Origin: a virus | Lineage: Duplodnaviria > Heunggongvirae > Uroviricota > Caudoviricetes | Virus record (IMG/VR): IMGVR_UViG_2713896896_000011 | Span: 1 to 16,007 of that record | Reading direction: 5' to 3' (one strand) | DNA: 16,007 nt | Part shown: piece by piece, positions 1 through 15,104 of the stretch | Layout: each line of letters opens with the position of its first letter | Numbering within the stretch: the first letter of the stretch is position 1 | Translations under genes and position numbers: made by a program | The notes under the pieces: generated by a model | Seen by the model: the letters and a program-made list of their open reading frames with translations, nothing else | Told to the model about the DNA's origin: nothing | Database searches by the model: none

Positions 1-159
1 ATGCTGTTTCCTTGCATCATTGATGGGGAGTCTAAAAGACAAACTATATTTGAAGTGATTCATAACGCAATGTTTTTATGTTTAAAAATTGATTTTATTT
101 ACAAGGCGATGGGGGATTGCTGAAAAAATACTTTTACCCAGTTTCGCCAGCAGCTGGTC

Positions 160-423
160 GTGCGCTGGGTTGAAGCGGGTGAAGGCGTATCGCCAATGTG
201 CTTTGCGGAGCTGCTGGCGTTACGCACAGAGACTGACGAACTGCTGGAATGTAAACAGCGTGCGGGTGAAGCGGAATATGGTCCGCGTCGTCCTTTGTTG
301 CATGTGTTTATTAGTACGGAACTGGTGCGCGGTGAGCTCCCTCCCATGTTACCGGATAGCAGGGACGGAGATGCCAGTGAGCTGGATGGGGTGTTGTATC
401 AAACGGTAATGCGCCGGGCGTAA
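160..423 (+). CDS. hypothetical small protein; start uncertain (GTG 160 or ATG 196); possibly a 3' gene remnant
   Basis: GC-rich ORF convergent on the tail operon. Its frame is open from 124, directly after an in-frame TGA at 121-123, and has no convincing Shine-Dalgarno. The stop (421-423) lies in the loop of the hairpin at 412-432. No family recognised. Confidence 0.3.
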   Translation: MRWVEAGEGVSPMCFAELLALRTETDELLECKQRAGEAEYGPRRPLLHVFISTELVRGELPPMLPDSRDGDASELDGVLYQTVMRRA

Positions 424-440
424 AGCCCGGCGTTATTTTA
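412..440 (+). terminator. rho-independent terminator between convergent genes
   Basis: 8-bp GC stem cgccgggc (412-419) / gcccggcg (425-432), 5-nt loop, then TTATTTTA (433-440). Strong on the plus strand. The same hairpin follows the stop of the minus-strand gene 438-893, but with a weak U-tract in that direction. Confidence 0.6.
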
Positions 441-893
441 CGGCTGATATTGCCAACTGCTGACTAAAGCATACAAATGGTTTGGGGAATAGCGCCAACT
501 CTCTTTTAACTGCAGAAACTCGGCGCAAAATTCACTGCAAAACAGACGATTGCGCTGTTCTTTATTGCCAGTGATAATTCCTAAGGCTCCGCGCCAGTCG
601 TATTTTTTGCCATTATGTTTATGGAAAAAAGCTTCCACATCCTGAAAGCTAGCCTGGAGCGGTAGCATATCCCACTTATCTGACGGTAGTGGCATTATCT
701 TTCCGCGTACACCGCGATCGCGCAGTGATGCAGAGTAGCAAAGGTAATTTTTTTCACCATGTACCACTGCTAACTCGCAGTGGGAATAACTGCCGCGTGT
801 GATTTTACGGGTAAGCCAGTCAGCTAGTTGCGCAATACCCCGGTGCTCTGTTCGGCCTTTATAGCAAGCGAGCCAGACAGTGGTTTTACTCAT
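438..893 (-). CDS. hypothetical protein, last gene of the tail operon; possible Cys/His hydrolase (permuted papain-like / NlpC-P60-like), unverified
   Basis: 151-aa ORF whose ATG (893-891) overlaps the tail fibre assembly stop (892-890) as ATGA, indicating translational coupling. Normal GC. Contains His-containing SYSHCELAVVHGE and Cys-containing LFCSEFCAEF motifs; the family guess is from motif resemblance only. Confidence 0.55.
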   Translation of the reverse strand: MSKTTVWLACYKGRTEHRGIAQLADWLTRKITRGSYSHCELAVVHGEKNYLCYSASLRDRGVRGKIMPLPSDKWDMLPLQASFQDVEAFFHKHNGKKYDWRGALGIITGNKEQRNRLFCSEFCAEFLQLKESWRYSPNHLYALVSSWQYQP

Positions 894-1504
894 GGTTGCC
901 AGCCTGTGGAGTAGTCGTAGTCGAGCACCGCCTGAATATCGCCCAGAGTTTCCACCGCCGCAATATGGCGCTGGGCGTTGGCAAACAGGCGCATATCGTG
1001 AGCCATGGTGACGGATTCAAACTGGGCGGCGATTTCATTGGTTAACTCAATCAGACCGTTATTTTTAGTTTTCCACATTAAACCTGGCGGAATTTGTTTT
1101 TCGGCTCCCATTTTTGTGAGTGAGAGTTGTTGGATTCGGCTATTTGTATCACTGTGGAAGTGATAGCCGTTGAGGATGATGTAATCGGTTGTGATGTAAT
1201 CTCGTTTGGATTTTATTCTTCTTATTATATCTTCTTTTATTTCTGAAATAAATTTAAGTATTGAATCTGTATCAACTATCCATTCTCCTTTTTTCAGTTT
1301 GTGAAATTTATCTGGTGGTGGCATAGAAATGAAGGATAAATCTTCACAGTTAATCCAAGTTGGAATATTATCTCTTGCATATATCTGCCATTGCTGATCA
1401 GTTATTTCAACTAAATGTTCTACTTTGGGATAGTTGTAACGTTCTGTATCGAACCAGTCCAAAACAACAAATGTTTCAGGATCAAAACATGCATATTTTG
1501 TCAT
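890..1504 (-). CDS. tail fibre assembly protein (Tfa-like chaperone)
   Basis: 204-aa ORF immediately downstream of the tail fibre gene (6-nt gap). Size and position match Mu U / P2 G / lambda Tfa-type proteins. The N-terminal-encoding half (about 1200-1504) is strongly AT-rich, the C-terminal half has host-like GC. Confidence 0.7.
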   Translation of the reverse strand: MTKYACFDPETFVVLDWFDTERYNYPKVEHLVEITDQQWQIYARDNIPTWINCEDLSFISMPPPDKFHKLKKGEWIVDTDSILKFISEIKEDIIRRIKSKRDYITTDYIILNGYHFHSDTNSRIQQLSLTKMGAEKQIPPGLMWKTKNNGLIELTNEIAAQFESVTMAHDMRLFANAQRHIAAVETLGDIQAVLDYDYSTGWQP

Positions 1505-1510
1505 TTTTAA

Positions 1511-3169
1511 TTACCATGATATTTTTACGAAACCAGAGGCACCTTTTGTTCCGCTAGTATTGCCTAAGTTTGTTAATTCATTATTGTCATATTCAAAAGG
1601 AGGCAAATAAGATCCTCCCGCTCCTCCAGAACCATAGCCTATTGCTGGTGTCGGATGTGTCATTATTGCCTTACTTCCACCATTATCCAGATATTCTGTA
1701 ATAACAGTGCCAGCGCTCCCTCCTTTTCCATATATGGAATTTTCACCATTCTTGCCAGGATAAAATTCTGCATATAACCGTATTGCGCCAGGTGCATAAG
1801 TATTTGGATGGTCAATGAATTTTATACAAGGCTGCGTAGTGTTAAAGTGATAAATGTTATATCCCCCATGACCTCCTTTGGCAATCATATTAGAAAATGA
1901 AGAGTCACCACCATCAAAGCTTTTTTGTGTTTTCTCTGTGTTATCCGATGAATACTTTACTTGTGAAACAGGTGGATTATTCCAAAATGGACCTCCATTA
2001 CCTCCAGCCCCAACCTTTACTGAAAAATGCTGGCTTGGTTCCACGTTTAAGTAACCAACGAGCAATTCACCTGTATTGCCACCACATGCTTCATAATATG
2101 ATGATTGTGCTCCTCCGGCACCACCACCACCGCCGCCCATAACTTCCACAAATAATGTAGTTACGCCATCAGGAACTGTAAATGTTCCATTTGTAGTATA
2201 AAAACTAGTGTGAGTATGATTAGCCGGAGCTGCAGCATTAGCCTTATCCATTGCCGCCTTAACCGCACTCGGCGTGGCTGCCTCCGTCGTGCTGTTGCTG
2301 TCCGTCGCATTATTCAGCTTCACAATCCCTTTTTGCGTCAGGGTGCCATCCTGAATACCCGTAATCTGCCCCCAGGGATGCGTATGACTGCCTGCAGCTT
2401 TACCATTTGCCAGGTCATACGCCGCCTTAACCGCGCTCGGTGTCGCTGCCTCCGTCGTGCTGGTGCTATTGGTCGCGTTATTTAGCTTCACAATTCCTTT
2501 TTGAGTCAGCGTACCATCTGGAATATCAGTAATTTGACTCCAGGTATGACGATGGTTTCGTGCCTCAATCATCGCCGCTTTCACCGCTTTTGACGTAGCC
2601 GCTTTAGTTTCGTCATCACTGTCAGTGGCGTTACTCAACTGCGTAAAGCCTTTTTGCATTAACGTAGCATCAGGATGATTAGTCGAACGTGCATGTTTAT
2701 CCAGTTGTGAATCAACATAATCACGTGTTGCCAGTACAATACTGGGATCAACGGTGAGTGTTACCGCAGTCGTGTTGGAAACTTCCATAATGAGACGAAT
2801 GCAAACTTGCTTACCGCTGCCGCCGGGTAATAGCGGTTTATACGATTCTGGGAATTTACCGATAGCAATAAGTTCGCCGTCAGTATCAAAAACGCCGACT
2901 TCACGTACATACCAGCCGCCGATATTTTCGGGCAGTACAAGTTCCGCAATTAACCAGTTAGGATTACTGGGTGCAACTGTTAATGTATTTAACTCACCAC
3001 GCCATACTTCATGACGTAATTTTGCTTGACTCGCCGAGGGTTCGTAATATTGCCCACCGCCGTCTCCAACGGCCATCTTTTGCAGATGTAGTTGTTTTTT
3101 ATCCGCAAGAGCACTGGCAATTTTTGCCATCCCCCTGTCGGTCAGGAGGGTATAAAACTCATTATCCAT
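1511..3169 (-). CDS. tail fibre protein (P2 H / Mu S-like N-terminal domain, fibre repeats, Gly-rich C-terminal domain)
   Basis: 552 aa. N-terminus (MDNEFYTLLTDRGMAKIASA...MAVGDGGG) resembles the tail-collar fibre N-domain. Three tandem ~56-aa repeats (TLTQKGIVKLNNATDSNSTTEAATPSAVKAA) follow, then a C-terminal domain with poly-Gly (GGGGGGAGG) encoded by low-GC DNA. SD GGAG precedes the ATG at 3169. Confidence 0.85.
   Translation of the reverse strand: MDNEFYTLLTDRGMAKIASALADKKQLHLQKMAVGDGGGQYYEPSASQAKLRHEVWRGELNTLTVAPSNPNWLIAELVLPENIGGWYVREVGVFDTDGELIAIGKFPESYKPLLPGGSGKQVCIRLIMEVSNTTAVTLTVDPSIVLATRDYVDSQLDKHARSTNHPDATLMQKGFTQLSNATDSDDETKAATSKAVKAAMIEARNHRHTWSQITDIPDGTLTQKGIVKLNNATNSTSTTEAATPSAVKAAYDLANGKAAGSHTHPWGQITGIQDGTLTQKGIVKLNNATDSNSTTEAATPSAVKAAMDKANAAAPANHTHTSFYTTNGTFTVPDGVTTLFVEVMGGGGGGAGGAQSSYYEACGGNTGELLVGYLNVEPSQHFSVKVGAGGNGGPFWNNPPVSQVKYSSDNTEKTQKSFDGGDSSFSNMIAKGGHGGYNIYHFNTTQPCIKFIDHPNTYAPGAIRLYAEFYPGKNGENSIYGKGGSAGTVITEYLDNGGSKAIMTHPTPAIGYGSGGAGGSYLPPFEYDNNELTNLGNTSGTKGASGFVKISW
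2204..2683 (-). repeat. three tandem ~168-bp coding repeats inside the tail fibre gene (third copy degenerate)
   Basis: gccgccttaaccgcactcgg at 2253-2272 recurs as gccgccttaaccgcgctcgg at 2421-2440, a 168-bp period, matching the repeated protein motif. Confidence 0.8.
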
Positions 3170-3171
3170 AA

Positions 3172-3804
3172 TTACTCCGGGTAAATAGATGTAATTTCAA
3201 GGCTCCATTGCCCTGTTCCGTAAAAGATTGTTGTGTTTTGTTGTACTTCCCGTATCTGGAAAGGTAAAAGCGTCGTCAGTTCACCCCCATAAAGCGCACA
3301 GCTAATAACAGGGATAGCACTTTGGTTAATGATCCAGACGATTAATGCTTCCAGTTTTGAACGTGTGTTTTTATATTCATGAATGAGTTCAACTAACTCA
3401 TTGAAAAGGTTTTCATCCATGCCTTTATCCACCAGTTCTATGTCAACCTTAAAAAAATAAGCTTTCCCGCCATATTCAAACCATTCGGCAATAGTTCCAG
3501 GCAATGAGAGTATTTCCAGTACTCGCCGTACCGCCCAAACTGTTCCTTTATATTTATGTAACTCAATGGCTTGCTTAATTAACTCACGCTTCTCTTGTTC
3601 ATCAGTAGTAAATAACCAACCTTCCAGCCCCTGAACGTGAAATTGTTCTGCAAGGGCAGGTAATGCCGAAGCATCAACCAGGTCGACCAGATAAACCATC
3701 AACGCCGTCAGATCGAGTTGCGCAAAACGTTCGGCGGCGATATTTGCCAGAGTTGAAAAACGCTCATCGCTGGTAAGCGGCGGCGGTAGCAGCAATTTAT
3801 CCAT
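3172..3804 (-). CDS. baseplate protein, P2 gpI / Mu gp48-like (YmfQ / DUF2313-like)
   Basis: Lies between the J-like gene and the tail fibre. The ORF track starts at TTG 3819; the likely true start is ATG 3804-3802 (MDKLLLPP...) preceded by GGAG and overlapping the upstream stop by 8 nt. Family call is from size, position and sequence resemblance. Confidence 0.7.
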   Translation of the reverse strand: MDKLLLPPPLTSDERFSTLANIAAERFAQLDLTALMVYLVDLVDASALPALAEQFHVQGLEGWLFTTDEQEKRELIKQAIELHKYKGTVWAVRRVLEILSLPGTIAEWFEYGGKAYFFKVDIELVDKGMDENLFNELVELIHEYKNTRSKLEALIVWIINQSAIPVISCALYGGELTTLLPFQIREVQQNTTIFYGTGQWSLEITSIYPE

Positions 3805-4912
3805 CGCTGACTCCGGCAATCGTGACGTCTATTACAGTGCATTCCGCCCATTCATGCGCCTGCAAAATACGTTTTGTAGGCATGTTCAGCACAACGTCAT
3901 AGACGCCATCGACTTGTAACACTTTGATTATCTGGTTTGGCACAATGTCCTGCCCCAGATGTTTCTGCCGCTGTTGCGTCCAGAGGCTAATCGCTTTACG
4001 CGCCGCAGTCAGTGTTGTCTCCTGATCGGCGGTGGTAAACAGCGTTAGCTGCGCACGAATTTCATACGGCACCCTGAGAGCACATTTCGCACTTACTTTG
4101 TCAGTCAGCGGACGTTTTTTCTCTTTACTCACTTCTTGTTCAATTTGCGCGAGTAGCTCGGTTCCCGGCAGACCATTCAGGGTTAGCGGGTAGAGCTCGA
4201 CGCAGCCTTCTGGCAACCCTTCATCTGGCCCCAGTACTGCAACGTCAATAATTGACTGGCTAACCGAAAGTGTATGAAAGCGATATGCGCCATAGCTGCC
4301 GGCATTACTGAAGCTTTCTGGCGCCAGTTGTATACGCTGGCGTAGTGCATCATCGTTCTCTTCACCGCAACCGCCGGTTGTGGGAGTCAGATTAGTCACG
4401 TTGATATCGTAATAACCGATCCTGTCAACAAGGGCGCTAATCTGTGCAGGCTGCCAGCCATTGCCCTGTTCACCTGCTGCGAGGCTGGTGGCCGGAACGG
4501 CGATATGCAAACTCCTGGCCGGAAGCAGAACATCTTCATCGGTGGCGAACATCACGCTGTCAGAGGCACTGGCCCGCGTCCCCTGGGGAATCAGGATATT
4601 GCTGGTATACGCACTGACGACCGAAAACTGCAACGTCGTTTTTGCCGGTTGCGCAGGTAAACGGTGAACACCCACCAGCTCCCCTAAATAATCCAACATT
4701 GGTGCGCGGGAATACGCGACCAGGTTTTGTTTCGCCGCTTCCTGAATGGCGATGCGCACAAGGTTTTCACGATAGGCAAACAGGTCGATGAGTAACCGTT
4801 CGGCCTGTGCCGGATAGAGTTTTTTACCGCTGGCATCTTCGTATTGCGCAATCATCTCGCTGGTAATTTGCGCAGGATCGCGGTCAATAAAATCGGGTTC
4901 GGCTATCGCCAT
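3797..4912 (-). CDS. baseplate J-like protein (P2 gpJ / Mu gp47-like)
   Basis: 371 aa. Strong SD GGAGG 4-5 nt before the ATG at 4912. Overlaps the upstream gp25-like gene by 10 nt. Conserved position in the baseplate module. Confidence 0.8.
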   Translation of the reverse strand: MAIAEPDFIDRDPAQITSEMIAQYEDASGKKLYPAQAERLLIDLFAYRENLVRIAIQEAAKQNLVAYSRAPMLDYLGELVGVHRLPAQPAKTTLQFSVVSAYTSNILIPQGTRASASDSVMFATDEDVLLPARSLHIAVPATSLAAGEQGNGWQPAQISALVDRIGYYDINVTNLTPTTGGCGEENDDALRQRIQLAPESFSNAGSYGAYRFHTLSVSQSIIDVAVLGPDEGLPEGCVELYPLTLNGLPGTELLAQIEQEVSKEKKRPLTDKVSAKCALRVPYEIRAQLTLFTTADQETTLTAARKAISLWTQQRQKHLGQDIVPNQIIKVLQVDGVYDVVLNMPTKRILQAHEWAECTVIDVTIAGVSDG

Positions 4913-5262
4913 AACACCTCCGTTGAGTTGATTACGCCGTCAGCGGCGCGCCATTGCACACGTAACGTCAGATGTTCACCGTCGATTATCGGTGCTACCT
5001 TCAGCAACCGACATCGCGGTTCCCACTGGCGGATGGCTTCCACCGACTCCCGTACCACATGCGGGATTGCCCGCTCGATGGGGTAATCGATGTAGTGCCA
5101 CAAGTTGCTGCCAAACAGCGGTCTGTGGGGATCACTGCCGCGCGGCGTGCGCAGAATGATGTGTATTGCCTGGTGAATATCATCCAGTCCGCAGACGTAT
5201 TCTTCAGGCCGCTGCAAGGCGGGTTGCCAGTGCAGCGTTGAGGGGCGTGTTTTTGTGTTCAT
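4903..5262 (-). CDS. baseplate wedge protein, gpW / gp25-like (Mu gp46-like)
   Basis: 119 aa. Contains RPLFGSNLWHYIDYP, resembling the gp25/W signature. Located between the spike and the J-like gene. Confidence 0.75.
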   Translation of the reverse strand: MNTKTRPSTLHWQPALQRPEEYVCGLDDIHQAIHIILRTPRGSDPHRPLFGSNLWHYIDYPIERAIPHVVRESVEAIRQWEPRCRLLKVAPIIDGEHLTLRVQWRAADGVINSTEVLWR

Positions 5263-5325
5263 GTGCTTATTTTCGCCCTGAACGGACAGTGGGGATATTA
5301 AAGCGATTTAGAAAACTGATTGATT

Positions 5326-5355
5326 AAAAAGAGAAAACCCGCCATCAGGCGGGTT
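5326..5355 (-). terminator. intrinsic terminator-like hairpin immediately after the spike gene
   Basis: Stem aacccgcc (5336-5343) / ggcgggtt (5348-5355), loop atca. On the minus-strand RNA it is followed by UUCUCUUUUU (plus 5326-5335). Sits in the 98-bp gap between the spike and gp25-like genes. Confidence 0.55.
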
Positions 5356-5360
5356 AAAAG

Positions 5361-6020
5361 CTAGTGTGAATGGTGATTTGAGTTACCACCGCTATCCTGC
5401 AATGTGCCGCTGGCCTGAACGTTACCAATCACATTGACATTGCCAGTTATCGTGGCGGCGTTACCGATGCCTCCACTTCCTGCCATGCCACCCAGCCAGG
5501 TGAGTTTTTTCATTACCGTGACGTTACCAGTAAAGGTGCTCATGGGCGCATCTACCGTCACTGTCGCCGCTTTAATATCGACGGTATCGGAAGTCACGGT
5601 GACCTGTTGGGCTTTAACCTCAACGTTGGGTGATGTCAGGTTAGTATGGTCAATAACCTCAATCACGATTTTCTCAATACCGCCGTTAATCGTAAGCTGG
5701 TGTGTGCTGCGGTCATATTCAAACGCTGCGCCATCAGAAAACTGGACGTAACGTTTATCTCGCGAGGCCACAGGCGCGGTGTCAACCGTAGAATAAACGG
5801 CCCCAAGTACCACGCCATCTTCGCCGTTGTCGTCCAGCAGAACTTCCACCTGCTCACCCATATCCGGTAGCCAGTAGTCTTTATTGTCCTGGGAATTACG
5901 TTGAAGTACCGCAAGCCAGTTACTCTTCAGATTGTCGCACTCTGGCAGTGTGACTCGCACCCGAACGCTGGTTTCGTCAATATCGCTGATAATCCCCGTT
6001 TGCCGGGTTACTCCCTTCAT
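5361..6020 (-). CDS. baseplate central spike / assembly protein V-like (Mu gp45-like)
   Basis: 219 aa. N-terminus GIISDIDETSVRVRVTLPECDNLKSNWL resembles gpV. C-terminal repetitive beta-helix-like region (GNVTV...GNVNVIGNVQASG) ends in the His-rich tip NSNHHSH. SD GGAGG 4 nt upstream of the ATG. Confidence 0.8.
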   Translation of the reverse strand: MKGVTRQTGIISDIDETSVRVRVTLPECDNLKSNWLAVLQRNSQDNKDYWLPDMGEQVEVLLDDNGEDGVVLGAVYSTVDTAPVASRDKRYVQFSDGAAFEYDRSTHQLTINGGIEKIVIEVIDHTNLTSPNVEVKAQQVTVTSDTVDIKAATVTVDAPMSTFTGNVTVMKKLTWLGGMAGSGGIGNAATITGNVNVIGNVQASGTLQDSGGNSNHHSH

Positions 6021-6029
6021 AGTGCCTCC

Positions 6030-7070
6030 TTACTGGCTGGTTGCTGGCCCGCGCGAAACGTCGATTTCAGTGGTATAGCCGCTGCGCACAAAACTGTGAG
6101 TAGATTTATCAATCAGCCATTGTCCAGAAAGAATACCAAAATCAATGAGTTCGATTTTATTGCCTGCTGTCAGTTCCGGGCAGCCCATCATCCTGAGTGT
6201 TCCGGTTTGCTGATATTCGTTGTGGCTGTCGAGTGCAGCGTTGGCCTTTGCCTGTGCCGCGCCAACATCCGTCGCCCGGCTGTTGAGTTTCAACGTGTCG
6301 GCACTGGTGCCGACTCCACGGGCTGACGGTTTTTGCTGGCTGTCGTGAGTGTAGATAACCAGTTCTTTTTTCTTACTATTTTGATGCTGTACGGTGGCGT
6401 TCTTGTAGATGCGATTAATGGTGTCTTTGAAGGTAAAGTGCGAAACCTCTTTGCGGTCGATGGTTTTCACTGGCGCCAGGCAGCGTAGTGTCGGCAGATG
6501 TGAAAAAATCAGCTCTTTTGTCGTCACTTTCACGGCATAGCCATATTCGCTGGCCAGACGCTTGAGAAATCCAACATCGGTTTCGCCGTACTGTGTCACC
6601 CGGTCAATCGCCAGCGGCTCGATTTTGCCCACCAGCTTCAGACCGTGAGTTTGCGCGATACGACTGGCGATGGCCGAAAGCGTCGTTTCTTCAAAGCCCT
6701 GACTGTTACGGGTACGCAGCGCCTGATTGACGGAAGTGGCAATGCCATCAATATTTACCGTGGAAGGTGGTGCTGAAATATCAATTTTATCAATAATATA
6801 CTGACCGCAATTGAGGAGCGTCTCCCCCTGATAACCCATATGCAGCGCCAGCGTATCGCCTTTGCCGGGATACCACTCTTTTATCCAACGTCCATCGGTG
6901 TCATCCAGTGTAATGGCGATGGTATCTGACTCGTTTTTGATGCTGTCGTGGTAACTGATGCTGGTGACATAGGGCGTGATGTCATAAGTGATATCTTTAT
7001 GCCCATACCAAAGGGTAAAAATGGGCGCGAGTGTGGCAAAGACGCCACCAGATACGCTTATCTCAGCCAT
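6030..7070 (-). CDS. baseplate hub / tail protein, P2 gpD / Mu P (gp44)-like
   Basis: 346 aa, placed between tail protein X and the spike as in Mu and P2 tail modules. Assignment by size, order and N-terminal resemblance. Confidence 0.7.
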   Translation of the reverse strand: MAEISVSGGVFATLAPIFTLWYGHKDITYDITPYVTSISYHDSIKNESDTIAITLDDTDGRWIKEWYPGKGDTLALHMGYQGETLLNCGQYIIDKIDISAPPSTVNIDGIATSVNQALRTRNSQGFEETTLSAIASRIAQTHGLKLVGKIEPLAIDRVTQYGETDVGFLKRLASEYGYAVKVTTKELIFSHLPTLRCLAPVKTIDRKEVSHFTFKDTINRIYKNATVQHQNSKKKELVIYTHDSQQKPSARGVGTSADTLKLNSRATDVGAAQAKANAALDSHNEYQQTGTLRMMGCPELTAGNKIELIDFGILSGQWLIDKSTHSFVRSGYTTEIDVSRGPATSQ

Positions 7071-7270
7071 GGTGGTATCTCCGATAAGGTTTTGTTGACG
7101 GAAATGACCGGAATAATGAGTTGAATACCGGAAGGCAGTACCGGGTAAATGGCGACATGTGGATTGGCGGCGATGATGCGTTCATAAGCCAGCGCATCGC
7201 CGTAGTAATACCATGCCAGATTATCCCAGCGTTCGCCGTCGGTGGTGATATGTTCAAGGTATCGCATCAC
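7058..7270 (-). CDS. tail protein X-like (LysM-like small tail protein)
   Basis: 70 aa. WYYYGDALAYERIIAANPHV...IQLIIP matches the LysM-like pattern of P2 gpX-type proteins. Start overlaps the upstream stop as ATGA. Confidence 0.7.
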   Translation of the reverse strand: MMRYLEHITTDGERWDNLAWYYYGDALAYERIIAANPHVAIYPVLPSGIQLIIPVISVNKTLSEIPPWLR

Positions 7271-8220
7271 CAGCTCCTCGTAATGGTCGCGGCAGCAAGC
7301 TGGCTCACTGCGGGAGTGGTTTGTTGTACCGTTGTTCGTGCCTGCTCAACCAACGTTGCGGCTTTATCGAACGTCGCTTCGGCGATGTCGTTGGTAATGT
7401 CGTCGAAAAGCGCCTGAGCATGGTCAACCAGCGTGCTGGCGTCTTTGGCGCAGTCCCGGATACCTGGCATGTTACCCAGTAAAGCGTTAATCTGCGCCGA
7501 TAACGCTTTTGGGAGTCCTGCCAGCGTTTGCAGATCCATGGGCTGTTTAAACAGGGTTTCGATGGCGTCGATAGTCTTTTTCAACGACGTAATTATCTTT
7601 TCACACTTTTCTTTTAACGCTTTGGCCTCTTTAACCAGTGCTTTCACTTTTGCCACCGTTTTTTTAATATCTTCAATGGCTTGAGTCAGCTCATCGAGCA
7701 TCTCTTTGGCCTTACGCATACCTTCTTCAATGGCGTTCAATATCTGATCAAACCAGGACTCCACCATGTCTGGAAAATCGCTCGCCTTTTCGTCAATATT
7801 CGGGTCTTGGGTAGTAATTGCCGGGGGCAAGAGTGGATTTTTAGGATCGCCGGTGTACTCCTGGAGCGACATTGTTCCGCTTTGAGCAATCACATTGCCC
7901 CAGGGATCGGTGTGCTGGTGGGTGGCGGTTAGCTCCGTAATCACAAACCAGCCGCGATAATCGCCATTGCCAAACACCAGAGCCATCGCTTTGTGGGCAA
8001 GCATGGCTTCACGCAGTCGATTCAGCTCTGTTGTGGGTTGGCAAAACTGGCTGTGCAAGGAAAATTCCAGTGCCAGCATATCCAGCTTATCGCCAATAAA
8101 CTGCACGCCGGGTTTGCCTTCTATACGGGCATGTGTGGCGTAGTCCACGCCCATTGTGCTTTTAAAGCCGTCCCAGAATGTGACAACCTTAAATTCAATC
8201 TCTCCTAAAACGGCATACAT
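7267..8220 (-). CDS. DNA circulation-like tail protein (Mu N / gp43-like, short form)
   Basis: 317 aa, immediately downstream of the tape measure; start overlaps the tape measure stop as TGATG. Central Lys/Glu-rich coiled-coil segment. Assignment mainly by synteny. Confidence 0.6.
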   Translation of the reverse strand: MYAVLGEIEFKVVTFWDGFKSTMGVDYATHARIEGKPGVQFIGDKLDMLALEFSLHSQFCQPTTELNRLREAMLAHKAMALVFGNGDYRGWFVITELTATHQHTDPWGNVIAQSGTMSLQEYTGDPKNPLLPPAITTQDPNIDEKASDFPDMVESWFDQILNAIEEGMRKAKEMLDELTQAIEDIKKTVAKVKALVKEAKALKEKCEKIITSLKKTIDAIETLFKQPMDLQTLAGLPKALSAQINALLGNMPGIRDCAKDASTLVDHAQALFDDITNDIAEATFDKAATLVEQARTTVQQTTPAVSQLAAATITRSW

Positions 8221-10595
8221 CAGGCATACCCCCGGCGCTGTTGTTGCGCCATTACGTCGTTAATCATTCTTTCCAGTTCGCGTTTACTTATCGTCAACAC
8301 GTTCTGAATGTCTTTAGTGGTGTTTTGTCCGTTACTCTGCACGGTAATTTGTGGCGAAAAATTCACCTGAACTTTTCCAGAGGAACGGGAGGGGAGCGTC
8401 GCCGGTTTGGTTACAGATTTACCAGGTAAAGAGGCCGATGCGGGTTTGGCGGCTGTATTTTTTGCCGCTGGTGTCGATGGCGACGTTGTCGTTTTACTGG
8501 ATGGCGCGAGTTGTTTGCCCACAGGAGGCGTTAAAATCGCTCCGGCAACGCCTGGAACAACGGTCGTGGGGGAGATTGATGCGGTATTCGTCGTGCTTGT
8601 AACAGCCGTAGCCGATCCTTCTGTGCTAATACCCATCGTGGTTTTTAGCCAGTCCGGTAAGGCGTTTTTGACCTGATCAATAATGCCTTTCAGAGCGGGG
8701 AAAGCATTCATTATGCCGTCAACCAGACTGCCCAGAAGATTGCTGCCGAACTCGCTAAAACTTGCAGGCATCTCGACACCAAACCAATTCATCACACTGG
8801 AAAAGGCGCTGTAGAACAACTCCAGCGGCGACCAGTCGAGAATTAACCGGCAAATCCCTGCAATGCCGCCGTCAAAGGCCGTGGTGATACGTTGCCAGAT
8901 GGCGGAAAAGAATCTGGAGATAGGTTCCCAGTGGCGATAGATCAGATAAGCAGCGCCCGCAATCGCGGTGATGACCAGACCAATGGGATTCATCAATAAA
9001 ACTCTACCCAACCAGAAGACGGTCTGACCTGCCAGTTTCAATGCGCCAATCAGGCCACGGCCAAGCAGTTGCGTTAGCCATTTTGCGCCGTTATATAATG
9101 ACTTAACCGCTGATAGCATCTTACTTGCCGCGCCTGTGAGCGTCAGACTTGCCCTGACTTTCAGGAAGATATCGACCAGACGAATAAACGGCGAGGCGAT
9201 GACGTTCGCGCCCAGCTTTAAAACATTCAGTGCGCCGTTAAACAGCCAAATCGCTCCGACGATTTTCGCAATGTTTTGCACCAGCGCCGGGTGTTCACGT
9301 AGCCAGGCGCTGAACTGGCGAATCACCGGAGTAAGGCTTTGCGCCAACTCGCCAATCAGCGGCATTAATTGCAAGCCAATGCTGAGCCATAAATCATTTA
9401 ACGCCAGTTGTAACGTTTTAGTTTGTTCAATGGGTGAGGCCATCTGCACAGAAAAATCGTTGTCAATCAGATTCTTACCGCTGTCTTGCATGGCGGAGGC
9501 TTTTAACTGGCGATACTCTTCCATATTCGCCAGCACAGGTGCCAGGAATTCCACTGTTTGCGCATCGCCGAACATTTCGCCCAGATTAAATTGCGTCACC
9601 ATCGATTGCAGTGCGTTGCTGCGAGCAGATAAATCTTCAATTTGCATGGTGCGTTTGAAGGTGTCGAGGATCGCCGGATTCATCTTCTCAAGTTGCGTTT
9701 GCACGATATGAATCATGGCTTCGCTAACACCCATGCCGTTTTGCTGATGTTCAAGCAGAGAGCCTTGCAGATCGACGCCCTGGCTGACGAACCAGTTATC
9801 GGTTTTTTTCGAAAAGATGGTTTGCAGAAAGTGGTCGAAATTCTCCGCCGCCACACTGGCGCTGGCACCATTTTTCATTGCGATCTGCATTGTGGCGGTC
9901 AGTTCAGCCATACCTTCTAAACCCTGTGCGCCAGTTTTAACTGCAAATTTGTCTATCCACTGTGTTTGCCCGGCAACGGTAGGCCCACCGTTTTTGCTAA
10001 TGCCGTACATCATGTTTTGCGCGGCGTGGAAATTTTCTGGCGCAATATTCAGTCGATCATGAGTCGCGAGCGCGGCATTCGCCCATGTTTCAGCACTTTC
10101 GCGCGTGGTGGTGGCCGCTTTGGCGATCTCCGGCATATAACGGTTGAGATCCTGCATCGACGACAAATTACCTTCGATTAGCACCTGGGCTGCGTTCTGT
10201 AAGGTGGTCTGCTGCTGGTTAAAATCCATGCTCCAGTCGCGCAGATTAAGGCTGAGTGTCTCGCGGGTTGTATCATTCATCCCACCTTTGGTCGCCAAAT
10301 TGACCATGTTGTCCTGAAACTCATACGGCAACTTCCAGTCAGGGATTTCAACATTGAATACTTTGCTAAATTGCCCGGCAAATGTTTGGGTTTTCTCCAT
10401 CAGATCAGCGCGGTTTCGGCTATTTTCCTCCAGGCGGAGAGCGGAATCGGCAAGTTGCTGCGTTAGTTTGATTACTGTCGCTTGCTGAGAAGAGAGTGCT
10501 AACAATGTTCTGGCGTTGAGTGAGCCGTAACGGGCTATTGCCTGCGTCAACGTCTCATTACGCGCCTGAAGCTGGGTAATAATATCGTTGGCCAA
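8220..10595 (-). CDS. tail tape measure protein
   Basis: 791 aa with internal hydrophobic segments and a Ser/Thr/Pro-rich C-terminal tract, located between chaperone and baseplate genes. Apparent start is TTG at 10595-10593 with AAGAG upstream; there is no in-frame ATG between the upstream stop (10634-10632) and the TTG. Confidence 0.85.
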   Translation of the reverse strand: MANDIITQLQARNETLTQAIARYGSLNARTLLALSSQQATVIKLTQQLADSALRLEENSRNRADLMEKTQTFAGQFSKVFNVEIPDWKLPYEFQDNMVNLATKGGMNDTTRETLSLNLRDWSMDFNQQQTTLQNAAQVLIEGNLSSMQDLNRYMPEIAKAATTTRESAETWANAALATHDRLNIAPENFHAAQNMMYGISKNGGPTVAGQTQWIDKFAVKTGAQGLEGMAELTATMQIAMKNGASASVAAENFDHFLQTIFSKKTDNWFVSQGVDLQGSLLEHQQNGMGVSEAMIHIVQTQLEKMNPAILDTFKRTMQIEDLSARSNALQSMVTQFNLGEMFGDAQTVEFLAPVLANMEEYRQLKASAMQDSGKNLIDNDFSVQMASPIEQTKTLQLALNDLWLSIGLQLMPLIGELAQSLTPVIRQFSAWLREHPALVQNIAKIVGAIWLFNGALNVLKLGANVIASPFIRLVDIFLKVRASLTLTGAASKMLSAVKSLYNGAKWLTQLLGRGLIGALKLAGQTVFWLGRVLLMNPIGLVITAIAGAAYLIYRHWEPISRFFSAIWQRITTAFDGGIAGICRLILDWSPLELFYSAFSSVMNWFGVEMPASFSEFGSNLLGSLVDGIMNAFPALKGIIDQVKNALPDWLKTTMGISTEGSATAVTSTTNTASISPTTVVPGVAGAILTPPVGKQLAPSSKTTTSPSTPAAKNTAAKPASASLPGKSVTKPATLPSRSSGKVQVNFSPQITVQSNGQNTTKDIQNVLTISKRELERMINDVMAQQQRRGYA

Positions 10596-10684
10596 AATTG
10601 TTTCTCTTATAGATTGGTGATGGCCCGCTGGTTAGTTTTCTGAAAAATGGGCTGGGAAGAAATAAACCTGGCGGGCTTTGAAGA

Positions 10685-10709
10685 ACTCGCAGACATCAGG
10701 TCTGCGAGT
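10685..10709. other. 10-bp perfect stem-loop in the chaperone-tape measure spacer
   Basis: actcgcagac (10685-10694) / gtctgcgagt (10700-10709), 5-nt loop. The loop contains the stop codon (10698-10696) of the +1-frame extension ORF. No adjacent U-tract on either strand. Confidence 0.5.
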
Positions 10710-10846
10710 CATATTCGATTTTTATTTGAGCGCTGGCTTCATCCAGCCAGTGACTAAAGTCATCTATCGTGAGCGCGTCAATCTCACTGGGTGGAAAGCG
10801 AAACCATCTCGCCAGTAGCGCCATTGCCTGCCATAGCAGGGGGGGA
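10696..10846 (-). other. candidate programmed-frameshift extension of the tail assembly chaperone
   Basis: A C7 run on the coding strand (plus 10839-10845) lies inside the chaperone gene. The +1 frame stays open from there to TGA at 10698-10696, 88 nt beyond the 0-frame stop; the -1 frame ends at 10766-10764. Chaperone-tape measure pairs with frameshift products are a conserved feature of tailed phages. Confidence 0.3.
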
Positions 10847-11101
10847 TTCTGTAGCCACGGTAAGCATGGATTGAAATCGTTTCTGCAACGCCTGGTAATC
10901 CAGCAAATCCATTTCAGCTAAATCTTCTGGTACCAGCCCGGTCATCGCTGCCATTAGCGGTTCATCCCATTCTTCCGGCTTTTCGCTGACCCGGCGTGCA
11001 TTACGCATATCTTTGACTTTCAGGCGACGTAATTGTAGCGTGTCGATATTATTTCCTGCTGCCGACGTAAAGGGAAACTGTAAGATATAATGCTCTTTCA
11101 T
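10784..11101 (-). CDS. tail assembly chaperone (Mu gp41 / P2 gpE-like)
   Basis: 105-aa acidic protein directly upstream of the tape measure, with SD AAGGA before the ATG at 11101. Conserved position. Confidence 0.7.
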   Translation of the reverse strand: MKEHYILQFPFTSAAGNNIDTLQLRRLKVKDMRNARRVSEKPEEWDEPLMAAMTGLVPEDLAEMDLLDYQALQKRFQSMLTVATESPPAMAGNGATGEMVSLSTQ

Positions 11102-11127
11102 TTTGTATCCTTATTTATTTTGCGGAG

Positions 11128-11147
11128 TTCGGGGCCGTAGCCCCGAA
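11128..11147. other. stable stem-loop between tube and chaperone genes
   Basis: ttcggggc (11128-11135) / gccccgaa (11140-11147), loop cgta, 4 nt after the tube stop. No U-tract follows on the minus-strand RNA, so it is not a canonical terminator. Confidence 0.5.
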
Positions 11148-11151
11148 TAAC

Positions 11152-11676
11152 TTAGCCACCGATGTTATTGCGATAGGTACTTAATTGATCCACGCCGTTA
11201 ACGCGGAAAATATTCGCCATATAATCCAGTTCAAGCAGCGTTTCACCATCGACTACTTGTTTAATATAAGTGCAGCCAAAGGCGCTGCTGAATTCCGGGT
11301 TTTCATTCTGTTTAAATGTGCCCAGTGGATTTTTTTTAAACATCACGGTTAAATGTGTGACTAACGCTAATTGATTCGCTTTCCCCTGAGAGTTATAACA
11401 ATCAATACTGGAGCGACACTGTAATGCTACAGCCTGCCACGGGTTTGCCGTTTTACGCATTACGTCCTGGTAAAAGGAGTTCCATTTAATTTCCCCCTCC
11501 AGTTTATCGAAACCAGCCGGGAGTTCTATTTTACCCACCATGCCCAGTGCTTTATGTTCCTGCATAATTAAACTGACATCTGGCAATTTAATTTCTGTTG
11601 CACGGCCTAAAAGATTATTACCATCGAGATAAATATTGGCGTTGGTAATACGGTTAATTTGAATTTTTCCAGCCAT
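11152..11676 (-). CDS. tail tube protein (Mu M / P2 FII-like)
   Basis: 174 aa, immediately after the sheath gene (TAATG overlap), in the conserved sheath-tube order of contractile tails. Confidence 0.8.
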   Translation of the reverse strand: MAGKIQINRITNANIYLDGNNLLGRATEIKLPDVSLIMQEHKALGMVGKIELPAGFDKLEGEIKWNSFYQDVMRKTANPWQAVALQCRSSIDCYNSQGKANQLALVTHLTVMFKKNPLGTFKQNENPEFSSAFGCTYIKQVVDGETLLELDYMANIFRVNGVDQLSTYRNNIGG

Positions 11677-13097
11677 TAGCGATTGCTCTCCAGAGAGACT
11701 AAATATTCAGAGGTAATTTCAGTTTCAAACGTCAGACGTTCCAGCGGCGGCGGTGGGGTAAATTTATAGCTGAGCAATAAATGCCCGGCACTGAGTTCAG
11801 CCGGTGAATTTCGCGCCGGATCGTACCAGCACTCAAAGCCAAGCAGTGCGCCGTCGGCAATCAGTTTTCGGCCCCAGGTATTTACCGATTCGGTCAGCGC
11901 GTCAATCAGTGCCTGATTGATCGGCATATCAATATACTGCTGACTGAAATAACGGATTGACTCATTAATTACATCGCCTGTCCGGCGAACGTTTTCAAAG
12001 TTACGCATATGAGTCACGGTTGGCCATGCCGCTGTGCGGTTGCCCCACAGGCGCAGACCAGAACCATAACTATTGAAAATAGTGGTAATACCGTTTTCGT
12101 TGAGCTGATTCACTTCGCTTTGTGGATCATCAATCATTGCGGAAAGCGAACGTTCGATACCGGTAATACCCTGAATTTCCTGGTTTGAGTTGCTCCACCA
12201 GAAACCTTTTTCGAGGTCTACTTTGGCACGTAGCCCGGCAGCGCGCGAAGAGAGAGGTTCAAGAATTTCCTGGTTAGTGATGCCATCGTAAACTTTGACG
12301 TGTGGGTAGCATAAACGTGCACGATCAGAGCTGGTATTGAAGTTGATTGCGCCTTGCGAACCGCGTCCAGCCAATACCTGCTGGAATGTAGTCCCAATTG
12401 GGGCATCAATGTAGGTAATCGCACCGAGTTTTTCCGCTTGTGCAATCAGCTCGGTAGTCACTGATTTTTGCGTACAAAAAACGGGTGCCAGCAGAATTTT
12501 GGCGTAGAAACCATACAAGTTATAAGTGTCCTGAAGGAGCCTCATCCCCGTGCGATCGCCTGCGGTATTAACGGCCCCGATAATATCGGCTGCGGTGACC
12601 TTTGTAGGGTCAACATAGGTATAAGTCGCGTAAACCTTTGCTCCTGCCGCAATTTCAGTTCCTGTACGGGTAATAACGCCGTCAGCGGCATTAACGCTGT
12701 ATGATGTATTTTTGTATGTAGTGGAACTGATACTTGCTCTTAGCGTTACCGAACTTACCCCCGGATGAGTTAATTTAGCTTTATCGTCACTATTGAACGT
12801 AATGGTTTCATTGGTAATGTGTAGTCCATGTTTTACTGGATCCAGCACATTAATTACCACCACTGTACCGGCACCGTGATCATAAATCGCCTTCAGCGCC
12901 TGCGGGATCGTAAAGTTAGCCTGAGTCGATCCAAACTGTGCCGCGTCACTTTCAGAAAGGCACAGCGTCGGTTGGTTTACCGGGCCACAGGGAGCGGTAC
13001 CGATTAAAGCGATTACAGCAGATTTTACTGCTTTTACCGGACGCGGGCCGGTTTCAATTTCAATGGTTTCTACACCGTGCAGATAATTAGCTGCCAT
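11676..13097 (-). CDS. contractile tail sheath protein (Mu L / P2 FI-like)
   Basis: About 473 aa. The ORF track starts at TTG 13103; the more likely start is ATG 13097-13095 (MAANYLHG...) preceded by GAGGAA. Size and position are typical of sheath proteins. Confidence 0.85.
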   Translation of the reverse strand: MAANYLHGVETIEIETGPRPVKAVKSAVIALIGTAPCGPVNQPTLCLSESDAAQFGSTQANFTIPQALKAIYDHGAGTVVVINVLDPVKHGLHITNETITFNSDDKAKLTHPGVSSVTLRASISSTTYKNTSYSVNAADGVITRTGTEIAAGAKVYATYTYVDPTKVTAADIIGAVNTAGDRTGMRLLQDTYNLYGFYAKILLAPVFCTQKSVTTELIAQAEKLGAITYIDAPIGTTFQQVLAGRGSQGAINFNTSSDRARLCYPHVKVYDGITNQEILEPLSSRAAGLRAKVDLEKGFWWSNSNQEIQGITGIERSLSAMIDDPQSEVNQLNENGITTIFNSYGSGLRLWGNRTAAWPTVTHMRNFENVRRTGDVINESIRYFSQQYIDMPINQALIDALTESVNTWGRKLIADGALLGFECWYDPARNSPAELSAGHLLLSYKFTPPPPLERLTFETEITSEYLVSLESNR

Positions 13098-13284
13098 GTA
13101 CAATTTCCTCTACGTTATTTTGTTCTTCCTGGGGAATGATGAGAATCAAGTGATTTCGGGCAATCATGGTCATAACCCACTCATTGTCTTCTGGCAGATC
13201 AATTTCACTGTTCGGCCATAATAAGATTTCTTGACCGTCGGCAAGGGTGACGCCGCTTGCCGGACCGTTGTAGATATATTTCAT
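13087..13284 (-). CDS. small conserved protein upstream of the sheath (Mu gp38 / DUF2635-like)
   Basis: 65 aa. Start overlaps the upstream stop as ATGA; overlaps the sheath start. Assignment by position and size only. Confidence 0.5.
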   Translation of the reverse strand: MKYIYNGPASGVTLADGQEILLWPNSEIDLPEDNEWVMTMIARNHLILIIPQEEQNNVEEIVHGS

Positions 13285-13736
13285 TCAGTTTCCTCGTAAT
13301 TAACTTCAGTAAGCAGGGGAAGATCCGTGCTGTCCTGTTCAGCGATAAACAGCGAGCTGGTCGCCATTTCCAGGATGTAGCGGCAGAAACCGTCGCTCTC
13401 ACCCGTATTAATTTCTTTTTCAAGCCAAATAAGATGATCGCAATCAGGAGGCTGAAGGCCTCCCAATGCGCTGCGTATGTGATCAAGTGCGTTTAACGCA
13501 TCACAATTTTTGCCAACAATAACGGTGGCGGTTAAGCGGAGTATTTGCTGTTGTACAATGGCATCACTACTTTCGGGCGTGGTGAAGACAGAACCGCTAT
13601 AATTAATAATCACCGTAATCTGTTGTGTCTGTGGAATATATTTTGGGGCATCCGTAGATGAAATGAATATGTCCATTTCAGGATGCCGATCACGTAATCT
13701 GACCACGACATAATTCATTACAGATAAAACTTTCAT
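13281..13736 (-). CDS. tail terminator / tail completion protein (Mu gp37 / K-like)
   Basis: 151 aa, first gene of the structural module after the terminator hairpin, with SD AAGG upstream of the ATG at 13736. Sits where Mu-like genomes encode gp37 before the sheath. Confidence 0.5.
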   Translation of the reverse strand: MKVLSVMNYVVVRLRDRHPEMDIFISSTDAPKYIPQTQQITVIINYSGSVFTTPESSDAIVQQQILRLTATVIVGKNCDALNALDHIRSALGGLQPPDCDHLIWLEKEINTGESDGFCRYILEMATSSLFIAEQDSTDLPLLTEVNYEETE

Positions 13737-13842
13737 ATGAGGTTTACCTTATTACCGCTCACTTCGTTATCGTTGAAATGTATTCTGAAGCAGTGAGAGT
13801 GAAGAATCTTTTAATGTGATTTAGAGAAAAAATTGAATGGTT

Positions 13843-13877
13843 ATAAAAAATCCCCACACTTACGTAAAGGTGGGGAT
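13843..13877 (-). terminator. rho-independent terminator separating the lysis cassette from the tail structural genes
   Basis: Near-palindromic 28-bp hairpin (13850-13877; arms atccccac / gtggggat) 5 nt after the stop of gene 13882-14196. On the minus-strand RNA it is followed by UUUUUUAU (plus 13843-13850). Confidence 0.65.
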
Positions 13878-13881
13878 GTAT

Positions 13882-14196
13882 TTAATAACTGCCACGTTGT
13901 AATAACTCTATTTTGCTATATAAGGCATCCAGCTTTGCTTCTAATACTGCTTGTCCACGAAGATAATCCTCTCTGCGGACATAATACAGTGGAAGTTCGG
14001 CACGAAATTCGAGAAATTCTCTTTCCAGTTTCGACCAGCTTGTTTCTGATTCCCTGCGGGCATTTTCCAGGGACTCAAAACGCTCATTAAGTCTTTTTTC
14101 AATTTGCGCTAACAGCAATTTTCCGGCAGCAAACATTAATCCAACGAATGAAAGCATAAAGGAGATCACTTCCCAAAAATCGATACTGAGTTTCAT
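13882..14196 (-). CDS. membrane-anchored coiled-coil lysis accessory protein (i-spanin-like or releasin-like)
   Basis: 104 aa. N-terminal hydrophobic segment (WEVISFMLSFVGLMFAAGKLLL) followed by a charged coiled-coil region. SD GAGGGG 4 nt before the ATG. Immediately downstream of the lytic enzyme. Confidence 0.5.
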   Translation of the reverse strand: MKLSIDFWEVISFMLSFVGLMFAAGKLLLAQIEKRLNERFESLENARRESETSWSKLEREFLEFRAELPLYYVRREDYLRGQAVLEAKLDALYSKIELLQRGSY

Positions 14197-14208
14197 CGGC
14201 CCCTCTGA

Positions 14209-14814: not shown

Positions 14815-14816
14815 CA

Positions 14817-15104
14817 CTATAGCCCTAACGCGACGGAAAGGCAGACTGCAGCCACGATGATGGCGCGACGAATCATTGCCGCTGCGTAGCAACGCGGTTC
14901 CTTTCTGGGGCAAAAAAAGTCAGGCCGTGCCCAGGGGAACAAACTACGATCGAGCCAGTATCCCAGCACTGCAGAAAGTGAAACCAGGCTTAGTTTATAA
15001 ATGACGACCGGAATTTGTGCTGAAGATGTCCAGCCGATTAATGCGATCAGAGCAATGGCTGCAGCCAGCCAACCGGAAAGACGGGGAAAAGTGATTTTTC
15101 TCAT
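14817..15104 (-). CDS. holin-like small membrane protein, first gene of the leftward operon
   Basis: 95 aa with two or three hydrophobic segments. Strong SD AGGAGA (15116-15111) 6 nt before the ATG at 15104. Directly upstream of the lytic transglycosylase. Confidence 0.55.
   Translation of the reverse strand: MRKITFPRLSGWLAAAIALIALIGWTSSAQIPVVIYKLSLVSLSAVLGYWLDRSLFPWARPDFFCPRKEPRCYAAAMIRRAIIVAAVCLSVALGL

Follow-up and report, generated by a model that had tools for sequence, protein, structure and literature searches.

A low-GC fibre-tip and chaperone cassette, probably an exchangeable targeting module, in a headless contractile-tail cluster of Escherichia albertii

We analysed a stretch of 16,007 nucleotides (nt) from IMG/VR record IMGVR_UViG_2713896896_000011, positions 1 to 16,007, referred to below as the window. 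It carries a contractile-tail gene cluster of the Escherichia albertii chromosome and, within that cluster, a segment of low GC content that takes in the distal part of the tail fibre gene and the first half of the adjoining gene for a fibre-assembly protein, the chaperone. Proteins identical to those of the window are labelled E. albertii by their sources. The cluster is tail-only and occupies 15.6 kb (438-16007). In E. albertii the genes are arranged in the order pgi, lysC, Mor, holin, SLT, a 104-amino-acid protein, Gp37 and a 65-amino-acid protein, then the tail genes (sheath, tube, TAC, tape measure, GpU, X, D, V, W, J, I, fibre, chaperone and hyp151), and beyond hyp151 follow RlaP, slipin, yjbD and rluF; the window itself spans Mor to RlaP. 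The set of contractile-tail genes is complete from sheath through fibre, and the same gene order is found in E. coli S10 (positions 13024-24001 of its locus stretch; the E. albertii locus stretch was examined for the cluster at its positions 6099-14288). Mor, Holin_2-3 and SLT were assigned through precomputed Pfam and RefSeq annotation. No head (capsid, portal), terminase, integrase or replication genes lie between lysC and RlaP in E. albertii or E. coli S10. In Salmonella the fibre, chaperone and hyp151 genes likewise adjoin yjbD-rluF. By its gene content the cluster is tailocin-like, with an R-type architecture, and it may direct the production of bactericidal particles. We found no description of the lysC-yjbD locus as a tailocin in the literature searched; the region treated in a paper on an ST131 'tailocin' (PMC9205054) is a different, prophage-associated one. 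The features of the fibre and chaperone region are collected in Table 1; all genes of the coordinates concerned lie on the minus strand.

Table 1. Coordinates of the fibre, chaperone and adjoining features in the window (aa, amino acids; GC3, GC content at third codon positions).
Feature	Position	Strand	Size, basis or remark
Baseplate protein gpI (Tail_P2_I)	3172..3819	-	Pfam; C-terminal part in weaker exchangeable block
Fibre gene	1511-3169	-	552 aa
Fibre N-terminal baseplate-attachment domain, aa 1-150	2720..3169	-	Pfam Phage_tail_fib
Fibre shaft, three Phage_fiber_2 repeats, ends ...TEAATPSAVKAAMDKA	2240..2719	-	Pfam; right homology arm
Fibre distal tip (putative receptor-binding), aa 311-552	1514..2239	-	Gly_rich_2, predicted fold; stop codon 1511-1513
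Specificity cassette (fibre tip, 6-nt spacer, chaperone N-domain)	1193..2239	-	Homology break and resumption; GC3 minimum
Fibre-assembly protein (chaperone) gene	890-1504	-	204 aa; starts 6 nt after fibre stop
Chaperone variable N-terminal domain, aa 1-104	1193..1504	-	Would bind fibre tip
Chaperone conserved C-terminal DUF4376 domain, aa 105-204	893..1192	-	Left homology arm; stop codon 890-892
hyp151, last gene of cluster	438..893	-	151 aa; start overlaps chaperone stop by 4 nt

The fibre gene stands directly downstream of the Baseplate_J and Tail_P2_I genes and encodes three distinct parts. The N-terminal domain matches Phage_tail_fib (PF12571, a tail-collar fibre domain; residues 1-150, E = 8e-61, 204.8 bits against a cut-off of 23), and the three Phage_fiber_2 repeats that form the shaft score 177 bits; this stretch of repeats also matches fibre S of phage Mu (5yvq). 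Within the shaft there is a tandem direct repeat of 168 nt (56 amino acids) at 2211-2378 and 2379-2546, the two copies of which are 77 % identical. E. coli S10 and KK19-02 have one additional 168-nt unit relative to the window, so the length of the fibre is polymorphic. The distal tip matches Gly_rich_2 (PF21722; residues 325-552, 34.4 bits, cut-off 24.3) and contains glycine motifs of the GGGGxGG type at residues 345 (GGGGGGAGG), 389 (GGNGG), 432 (GGHGG) and 515 (GGAGG). An AlphaFold 2 (AF2) model of residues 300-552, computed from an alignment of 33 sequences, has a predicted local distance difference test score (pLDDT) of 87.8. When this model was searched with Foldseek, the best match in the PDB was the Pam3 fibre gp24 (7ypx_A; E = 1.8e-6, probability 1.0, template-modelling (TM) score 0.50), followed by the tail tip of mycobacteriophage Bxb1 and the glycine-rich domain of ALK/LTK (E < 1e-3). 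The tip is thus predicted to adopt a TNF-like plus glycine-rich fold, a class to which Pam3 gp24, S16 gp38 and the glycine-rich domain of ALK belong.

The 204-residue chaperone matches DUF4376 (PF14301) over residues 88-196 (49.3 bits, cut-off 25). Its AF2 model (pLDDT 91) is beta-rich over residues 1-77 and continues through a long helix (79-105) into an alpha/beta C-terminal domain. No solved structure gave a significant match to this protein, TfaMu (5YVQ) and Pam3 gp25 included, and no match to Caudo_TAP (PF02413) was obtained. By every genomic criterion the protein appears Tfa-like, yet it falls outside the Caudo_TAP family.

A reading of the window made from its letters alone (the sequence-only reading) had noted a drop in GC across roughly 1200-2150 and had assigned the block 1190-2200 to the distal fibre domain together with the N-terminal half of the assembly protein. 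Both sliding-window GC and GC3 confirm the drop. The block has a GC content of 0.372. The whole window stands at 0.475, values outside the block average 0.484 (standard deviation 0.035), and the 1000-nt window with the lowest GC in the whole 16 kb (0.363) starts at 1031. In 200-nt windows the values are 0.295-0.44 across 1101-2100 and 0.50-0.555 at 701-1100 and 2101-2600. At third codon positions, GC3 is 0.228 in the codons of the cassette (n = 347) versus 0.510 in the remaining codons of the window's genes (n = 4334; Fisher p = 2.9e-25), and when a 347-codon window was slid without bias along the genes the GC3 minimum was found at 1196-2243. Both genes are divided in this way, with GC3 at 0.236 in fibre residues 311-552 and 0.212 in chaperone residues 1-104, and at 0.442 in fibre residues 1-310 and 0.560 in chaperone residues 105-204. 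The assignment of the block to the two half-genes was correct to within ~40 nt: its left edge, 1190, is at most 3 nt from the homology junction described below, and its right edge, 2200, coincides with the start of Gly_rich_2 (residue 325, nt 2197), ~40 nt short of the junction at 2239. The same reading had called the remainder of both genes host-like in composition. For the C-terminal half of the chaperone this holds overall, except that GC3 declines over ~1000-1190. It does not hold fully for the N-terminal domain of the fibre, since a second, weaker GC3 trough (0.32-0.43), at 2480-3560, covers that domain and the C-terminal part of gpI. The C-terminal part of gpI and the fibre N-terminal domain may form a second, weaker exchangeable block, which suggests that these two parts meet at a second co-varying interface.

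The cassette is delimited most directly by alignment with related clusters that carry other cassettes at the same place. We refer to the cassette classes as types, that of the window being type A. Over 95-1205, and again from ~2210-3296 onward, E. coli KK19-02 (type C) and CLSC36 (type B) share 84-92 % identity with the window, and between those flanks no nucleotide homology to it was found. In 30-nt windows the identity collapses at ~1190-1205 and is back at ~2240. In protein sequence, conservation of the fibres extends as far as ...TEAATPSAVKAAMDKA (residue 310), and that of the chaperones runs from ...TTDYII (residue 105) on. What is more, a second E. albertii genome, GCA_005404705.1 (type B), shares 98.3 % identity with the window at 3296-7508, that is, from the N-terminal part of gpI through the baseplate genes to gpU, and despite this flank it has an unrelated Collar-domain tip and a Caudo_TAP_N-type N-terminal module in the chaperone. 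When 28 chaperones were aligned (from Escherichia, Salmonella, Enterobacter, Citrobacter, Superficieibacter and Scandinavium), the C-terminal domain proved near-invariant, and at least four unrelated N-terminal modules occur on this one conserved domain, whose identity is 80-93 % whatever the cassette type or genus. The type-B module is the N-terminal half of Caudo_TAP (profile positions 1-74, 31 bits), and the tip that goes with it is a Collar domain. With a Caudo_TAP half joined to a DUF4376 C-terminal domain, modules are exchanged at the chaperone junction even between chaperone families. Between them, E. albertii, E. coli and Salmonella carry at least three unrelated or distant cassettes at this locus, with junctions at the same two places. 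The breaks in KK19-02 and CLSC36, the unrelated tip and chaperone module of GCA_005404705.1 and the almost invariant chaperone C-terminal domain together establish an exchangeable cassette with junctions inside both genes, as the sequence-only reading had supposed, and the alignment to related clusters that it had called for locates the junctions at ~1190-1205 and ~2240.

The two variable parts do not vary independently. Compared with the window, the identities of the tip, the chaperone N-terminal domain and the chaperone C-terminal domain are, in that order, 82 %, 88 % and 91 % for the E. coli type A cassette; 67 %, 52 % and 82 % for the Salmonella type A cassette; 43 %, 36 % and 80 % for the S. 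Typhimurium type; 38 %, 32 % and 90 % for E. coli type C; and 26 %, 23 % and 93 % for E. coli type B. In these comparisons the identities of the tip and of the chaperone N-terminal domain co-vary. The cluster was matched in 243 of 5426 complete E. coli genomes, although 47 of the 243 matches are only 60-80 % identical and the weakest of those listed cover just the neighbouring RlaP gene; a type-A cassette is present in 39.

Several features adjoin the cassette or lie elsewhere in the cluster. The hyp151 gene follows the chaperone gene in every allele and genus examined, and their 4-nt overlap indicates that the two are translationally coupled; its product has a single family match, PHROG 1128, and gave none in Pfam, NCBIfam or the PDB. 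The flank next to hyp151 is variable within E. albertii, where either RlaP and slipin (Band_7) or a GT4 glycosyltransferase is found (positions 12733-14700 of two locus stretches, set against two others). In the S. Typhimurium-type locus (positions 1-2744), an O-antigen modification operon resembling gtrA/gtrB/gtrC abuts gpW and replaces the genes from sheath to gpV. At the other end of the cluster, a second strongly AT-rich stretch (15000-15750, GC 0.34-0.35) lies between the divergent Mor gene and the holin/lysis genes and is probably the regulatory region of the cluster.

The age of the cassette was estimated from synonymous divergence (dS). Between the window and E. coli S10, whose type-A cassette is 87-92 % identical, dS is 0.23-0.32 in the cassette and 0.28-0.63 in the flanks. 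For type B, the E. albertii locus shares ~90.5 % identity with that of E. coli throughout. Since the cassettes have diverged about as much as their flanks, both allele classes, A and B, would be roughly as old as the species split and neither is a fresh import. The Salmonella outgroup is saturated at synonymous sites (dS > 1). The ratio of nonsynonymous to synonymous divergence (dN/dS) relative to E. coli is 0.31 for the tip, 0.21 for the chaperone N-terminal domain and 0.03-0.13 for the flanks; all values are below 1, and the open reading frames (ORFs) are intact. A low GC3 is not peculiar to type A. At the cassette position GC3 is 0.21-0.26 in type A, 0.27-0.37 in type B, 0.36-0.37 in type C and 0.30-0.34 in Salmonella; every allele (0.21-0.37 overall) is low beside its own flanks (0.44-0.76), and in the Salmonella copies GC3 is shifted upward together with that of the GC-richer flanks (0.63-0.76). 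With all alternative alleles low in GC3, low GC alone is no proof of a foreign donor. It does mark a history of the cassette that is separate from that of the rest of the cluster, and both an AT-rich pool of fibre genes and the drift towards AT of rarely recombining alleles may fit the composition.

Searches for a donor were made in several collections. Searched at the protein level, by itself or as a profile, the tip returned only fibres from Escherichia and Salmonella that share its fibre architecture, and very distant Gly_rich_2 proteins. A scan of a genome collection gave one match, a contig labelled 'MAG: Bacillota bacterium' (JAEZCC010000043.1); we rejected it as a Bacillota donor, since this contig, of 6.7 kb, shares 99.8 % identity with E. 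coli S10 along its length and looks like mis-binned Escherichia. When 50,697 phage records were searched with tblastn, the only match was a 6-kb fragment named 'Salmonella phage S.Kent 1-2-1' (tip 32 %), apart from distant DUF4376 proteins in Moraxella and Acidovorax phages, and in IMG/VR only contigs of at most 18 kb matched. Under the name 'Salmonella phage S.Kent 1-2-1', two records of 4-6 kb (OR850896.1 and OR850955.1) match the baseplate, fibre and chaperone genes of the cluster, with 79-90 % nucleotide identity or 58 % identity of the chaperone protein. Both look like pieces of this element, not like a phage genome.

These data bear on several ways of accounting for the low GC of the cassette. 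The simplest, that the dip is a by-product of amino acid composition or lies within ordinary intragenic variance, draws on the unusual make-up of the tip, which is 18 % Gly and enriched in Asn, Ser, Thr and Tyr. The drop, however, is at synonymous sites, so that amino acid composition is not its explanation; GC at second codon positions is high in the tip (0.50), reflecting the GGN codons of Gly. As the extreme of the whole 16 kb (p = 3e-25), the block also exceeds normal intragenic variance, which the sequence-only reading had named as the alternative to be excluded. The GC3 analysis rules this explanation out, and we give it next to no weight. A recent horizontal import from a low-GC donor species or phage, whose signature the low GC would be, is in line with a GC3 of 0.21-0.24 amid locus genes at 0.51 and with the sharpness of the cassette edges. 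Against it stand the close copy in E. coli S10, with dS similar to or slightly below that of the flanks, and a 66-67 % identical version at the same locus in Salmonella. Moreover, all close relatives of the tip share the fibre architecture and come from Escherichia or Salmonella, and the phage, IMG/VR and genome-collection searches yielded no donor beyond fragments and the mis-binned contig. Recent import is largely refuted by these results, and we consider it improbable. Of the earlier description of the cassette as horizontally acquired, replacement of alleles by recombination therefore stands, and recent import, which the dS values contradict, does not. On the other hand, the low GC3 could have arisen in place, if non-recombining segments of the alleles miss GC-biased repair or conversion and codon selection and drift to AT; the cassette would remain a unit of exchange, and its composition would say nothing about a donor. 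This possibility agrees with the low GC3 of every allele, whatever its fold or host, with the upward shift of the Salmonella copies along with their flanks, and with the age of the alleles, over which a purely foreign signature should have faded. However, a shared AT-rich pool of tail-fibre genes predicts the same pattern, and GC-biased conversion in enterobacteria is an assumption; we hold an origin in place to be possible, at less than even odds.

Two further explanations concern the state of the cluster and the way in which its tip varies. The cluster could be a decaying prophage remnant in which the AT-rich block is relaxed and non-functional. The fibre is indeed split into pseudogenes in some E. 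coli genomes, the S. Typhimurium-type locus has lost its sheath-to-gpV genes to the gtr operon, and dN/dS is higher in the cassette than in the flanks. But the tail genes, lysis genes and Mor of the window are all intact ORFs with lengths as in E. coli S10, the assembly collection holds the exact 552-residue fibre in 93 of its indexed blocks, a dN/dS of 0.21-0.31 remains a sign of purifying selection, and one chromosomal site has been kept across genera. We regard decay as unlikely, if somewhat less so than recent import. Programmed switching of the tip, whether through a segment that inverts, as Mu G and P1 C do, or through a diversity-generating retroelement, comes to mind because the tail genes of the cluster are Mu-like and a Mor regulator is present; in the Mu and P1 fibres the tip-plus-chaperone unit sits in invertible segments. 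Yet we found no meaningful inverted repeats around 1-3400 (the best is 17 nt at 82 %), there is no second, oppositely oriented tip and chaperone, and the sole long direct repeat is the 168-nt shaft unit. Among the ORFs of the 16-kb cluster, none was identified by match or annotation as an invertase or a reverse transcriptase, although three small ORFs have no family and no dedicated search was made. Given the lack of inverted repeats, of a second tip set and of an identified invertase or reverse transcriptase ORF, inversion and retroelement-driven switching were rejected at this locus, and their probability is practically nil.

The data are best accommodated if the minus-strand segment 1193-2239 serves as an exchangeable module for targeting, within a headless contractile-tail cluster of P2/Mu type located on the E. 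albertii chromosome between lysC and RlaP-slipin-yjbD-rluF. We put the probability of this reading at roughly 0.8. According to this model, the tip (residues 311-552) and chaperone residues 1-~104 are two segments that must fit each other. The chaperone N-terminal domain would hold on to the tip during folding and trimerisation of the fibre, which start from the fibre C-terminus, and the conserved C-terminal domain of the chaperone would serve a generic function in oligomerisation. The tip would then decide which cell surface the particle binds, and by analogy with the receptor-binding tip of Pam3 gp24 (PMC9608196) the glycine-rich tip may set the target range, as the sequence-only reading had proposed. 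Tip and chaperone N-terminal domain would be inherited as one unit because they are co-adapted. The last Phage_fiber_2 repeat and the DUF4376 domain could supply the homology on either side, so that recombination replaces the unit whole. Types A, B, C and others persist at the locus across Escherichia and Salmonella.

Some observations weigh against such a neatly bounded and functional module. In GCA_005404705.1 the replaced block is larger and comprises the whole fibre and the C-terminus of gpI, with 2232-3220 at 69 % identity, so the cassette edges are not the sole points of recombination. In the chaperone gene, GC3 is already falling from ~1000-1190, within the conserved half, which places the compositional edge ~100-190 nt into the conserved domain and off the exact homology junction. 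The TM-scores relative to the Pam3 fibre are moderate (0.50). Finally, because the S. Typhimurium-type locus has gtr genes instead of the upstream tail genes, the element is not functional everywhere.

A broader proposal is that the cluster is an old domesticated R-type tailocin of Escherichia, Salmonella and probably related genera, the killing spectrum of which is kept polymorphic by balancing selection. Types A and B each show a divergence between E. coli and E. albertii at the level of the species, which suggests that the classes predate the species (trans-species polymorphism). The cassettes have also stayed AT-rich at synonymous sites despite their age, which points to a process beyond simple foreign origin, such as alleles that are cold for recombination or regulation that acts on AT-rich DNA. 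We advance this proposal only tentatively and consider it less probable than not.

If the targeting module is as described, ~nt 1192/1193 and 2239/2240 would be the exact swap points for retargeting a contractile-tail particle, and the cassette would show which half of the chaperone must travel with which tip. The rule of a variable N-terminal and a conserved C-terminal part, known for Caudo_TAP chaperones, extends to DUF4376 chaperones, and the locus offers natural hybrids in which a Caudo_TAP N-terminal half is set on a DUF4376 C-terminal half. In Salmonella the cassette position already serves as an unwitting serovar marker: the forward primer and probe of the S. Typhimurium-specific STM4200 quantitative PCR assay (PMC6201931) have their exact matches within the orthologous fibre, in its variable tip (locus positions 6168-6228). 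Should the cluster turn out to make a working tailocin, it ought to be predictable from the cassette types which strains of E. albertii, E. coli and Salmonella kill which others.

A mosaic unit of tip and cognate chaperone is already well known from P2, Mu, lambda, Pam3 and the R-pyocins. In Pam3, the variable N-terminal beta-sandwich of gp25 binds the fibre at its TNF-like and its glycine-rich domain, and a conserved C-terminal helical domain trimerises; the same modular logic has been described for Mu Tfa (PMC9608196). The Pam3 gp24/gp25 pair (7YPX; PMC9608196) resembles the genes of the window in its TNF-like plus glycine-rich tip with GGGGxGG motifs, in the position of the chaperone beside the fibre, and in having a variable chaperone N-terminal domain that goes with the tip and a conserved C-terminal domain. 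The fibres are, however, only ~18 % identical, the chaperone of the window belongs to DUF4376 and could not be matched structurally to gp25, and Pam3 has a simple helical stalk where the window fibre has a P2/Mu-type collar and a Phage_fiber_2 shaft. With Mu S/U (Tfa, 5YVQ), P2 H/G and lambda Stf/Tfa, the window shares the mosaic unit of tip and chaperone N-terminal domain next to a conserved C-terminal domain. The shaft repeats match Mu S, and type-B alleles at the locus carry a Caudo_TAP N-terminal half. Unlike in those systems, the chaperone of the window has no Caudo_TAP match, its conserved C-terminal domain is DUF4376, and no Gin/Cin inversion system was identified.

Proteins with DUF4376 are the annotated tail-fibre chaperones of the Alteromonas phages V22 and A5 (PMC10579305), and for V22 the chaperone is reported to be required for folding or activity of the fibre (PMC7289586). 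V22 gp27 and A5 gp9 are similar to the window chaperone in that DUF4376 lies in the C-terminal part of a ~200-residue protein encoded directly after the fibre, and a fibre-plus-chaperone module is common to these unrelated phages. Their hosts and fibres are unrelated to those considered here, and the module of the window is part of a chromosomal headless cluster. In gene organisation the R-type pyocins of Pseudomonas aeruginosa are similar: their contractile-tail cluster is headless, keeps to one place in the chromosome and includes regulator and lysis genes. Their subtypes differ in the C-terminus of the fibre (Prf15) and in its cognate chaperone (Prf16). The pyocin tip, though, has a lectin fold and the chaperone belongs to another family; no documentation of bactericidal activity of the Escherichia/Salmonella cluster was found in the literature searched. 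Compared with all of these systems, what is new is a cleanly delimited example in which a DUF4376 chaperone is combined with a glycine-rich tip, in an apparently uncharacterised enterobacterial tail cluster.

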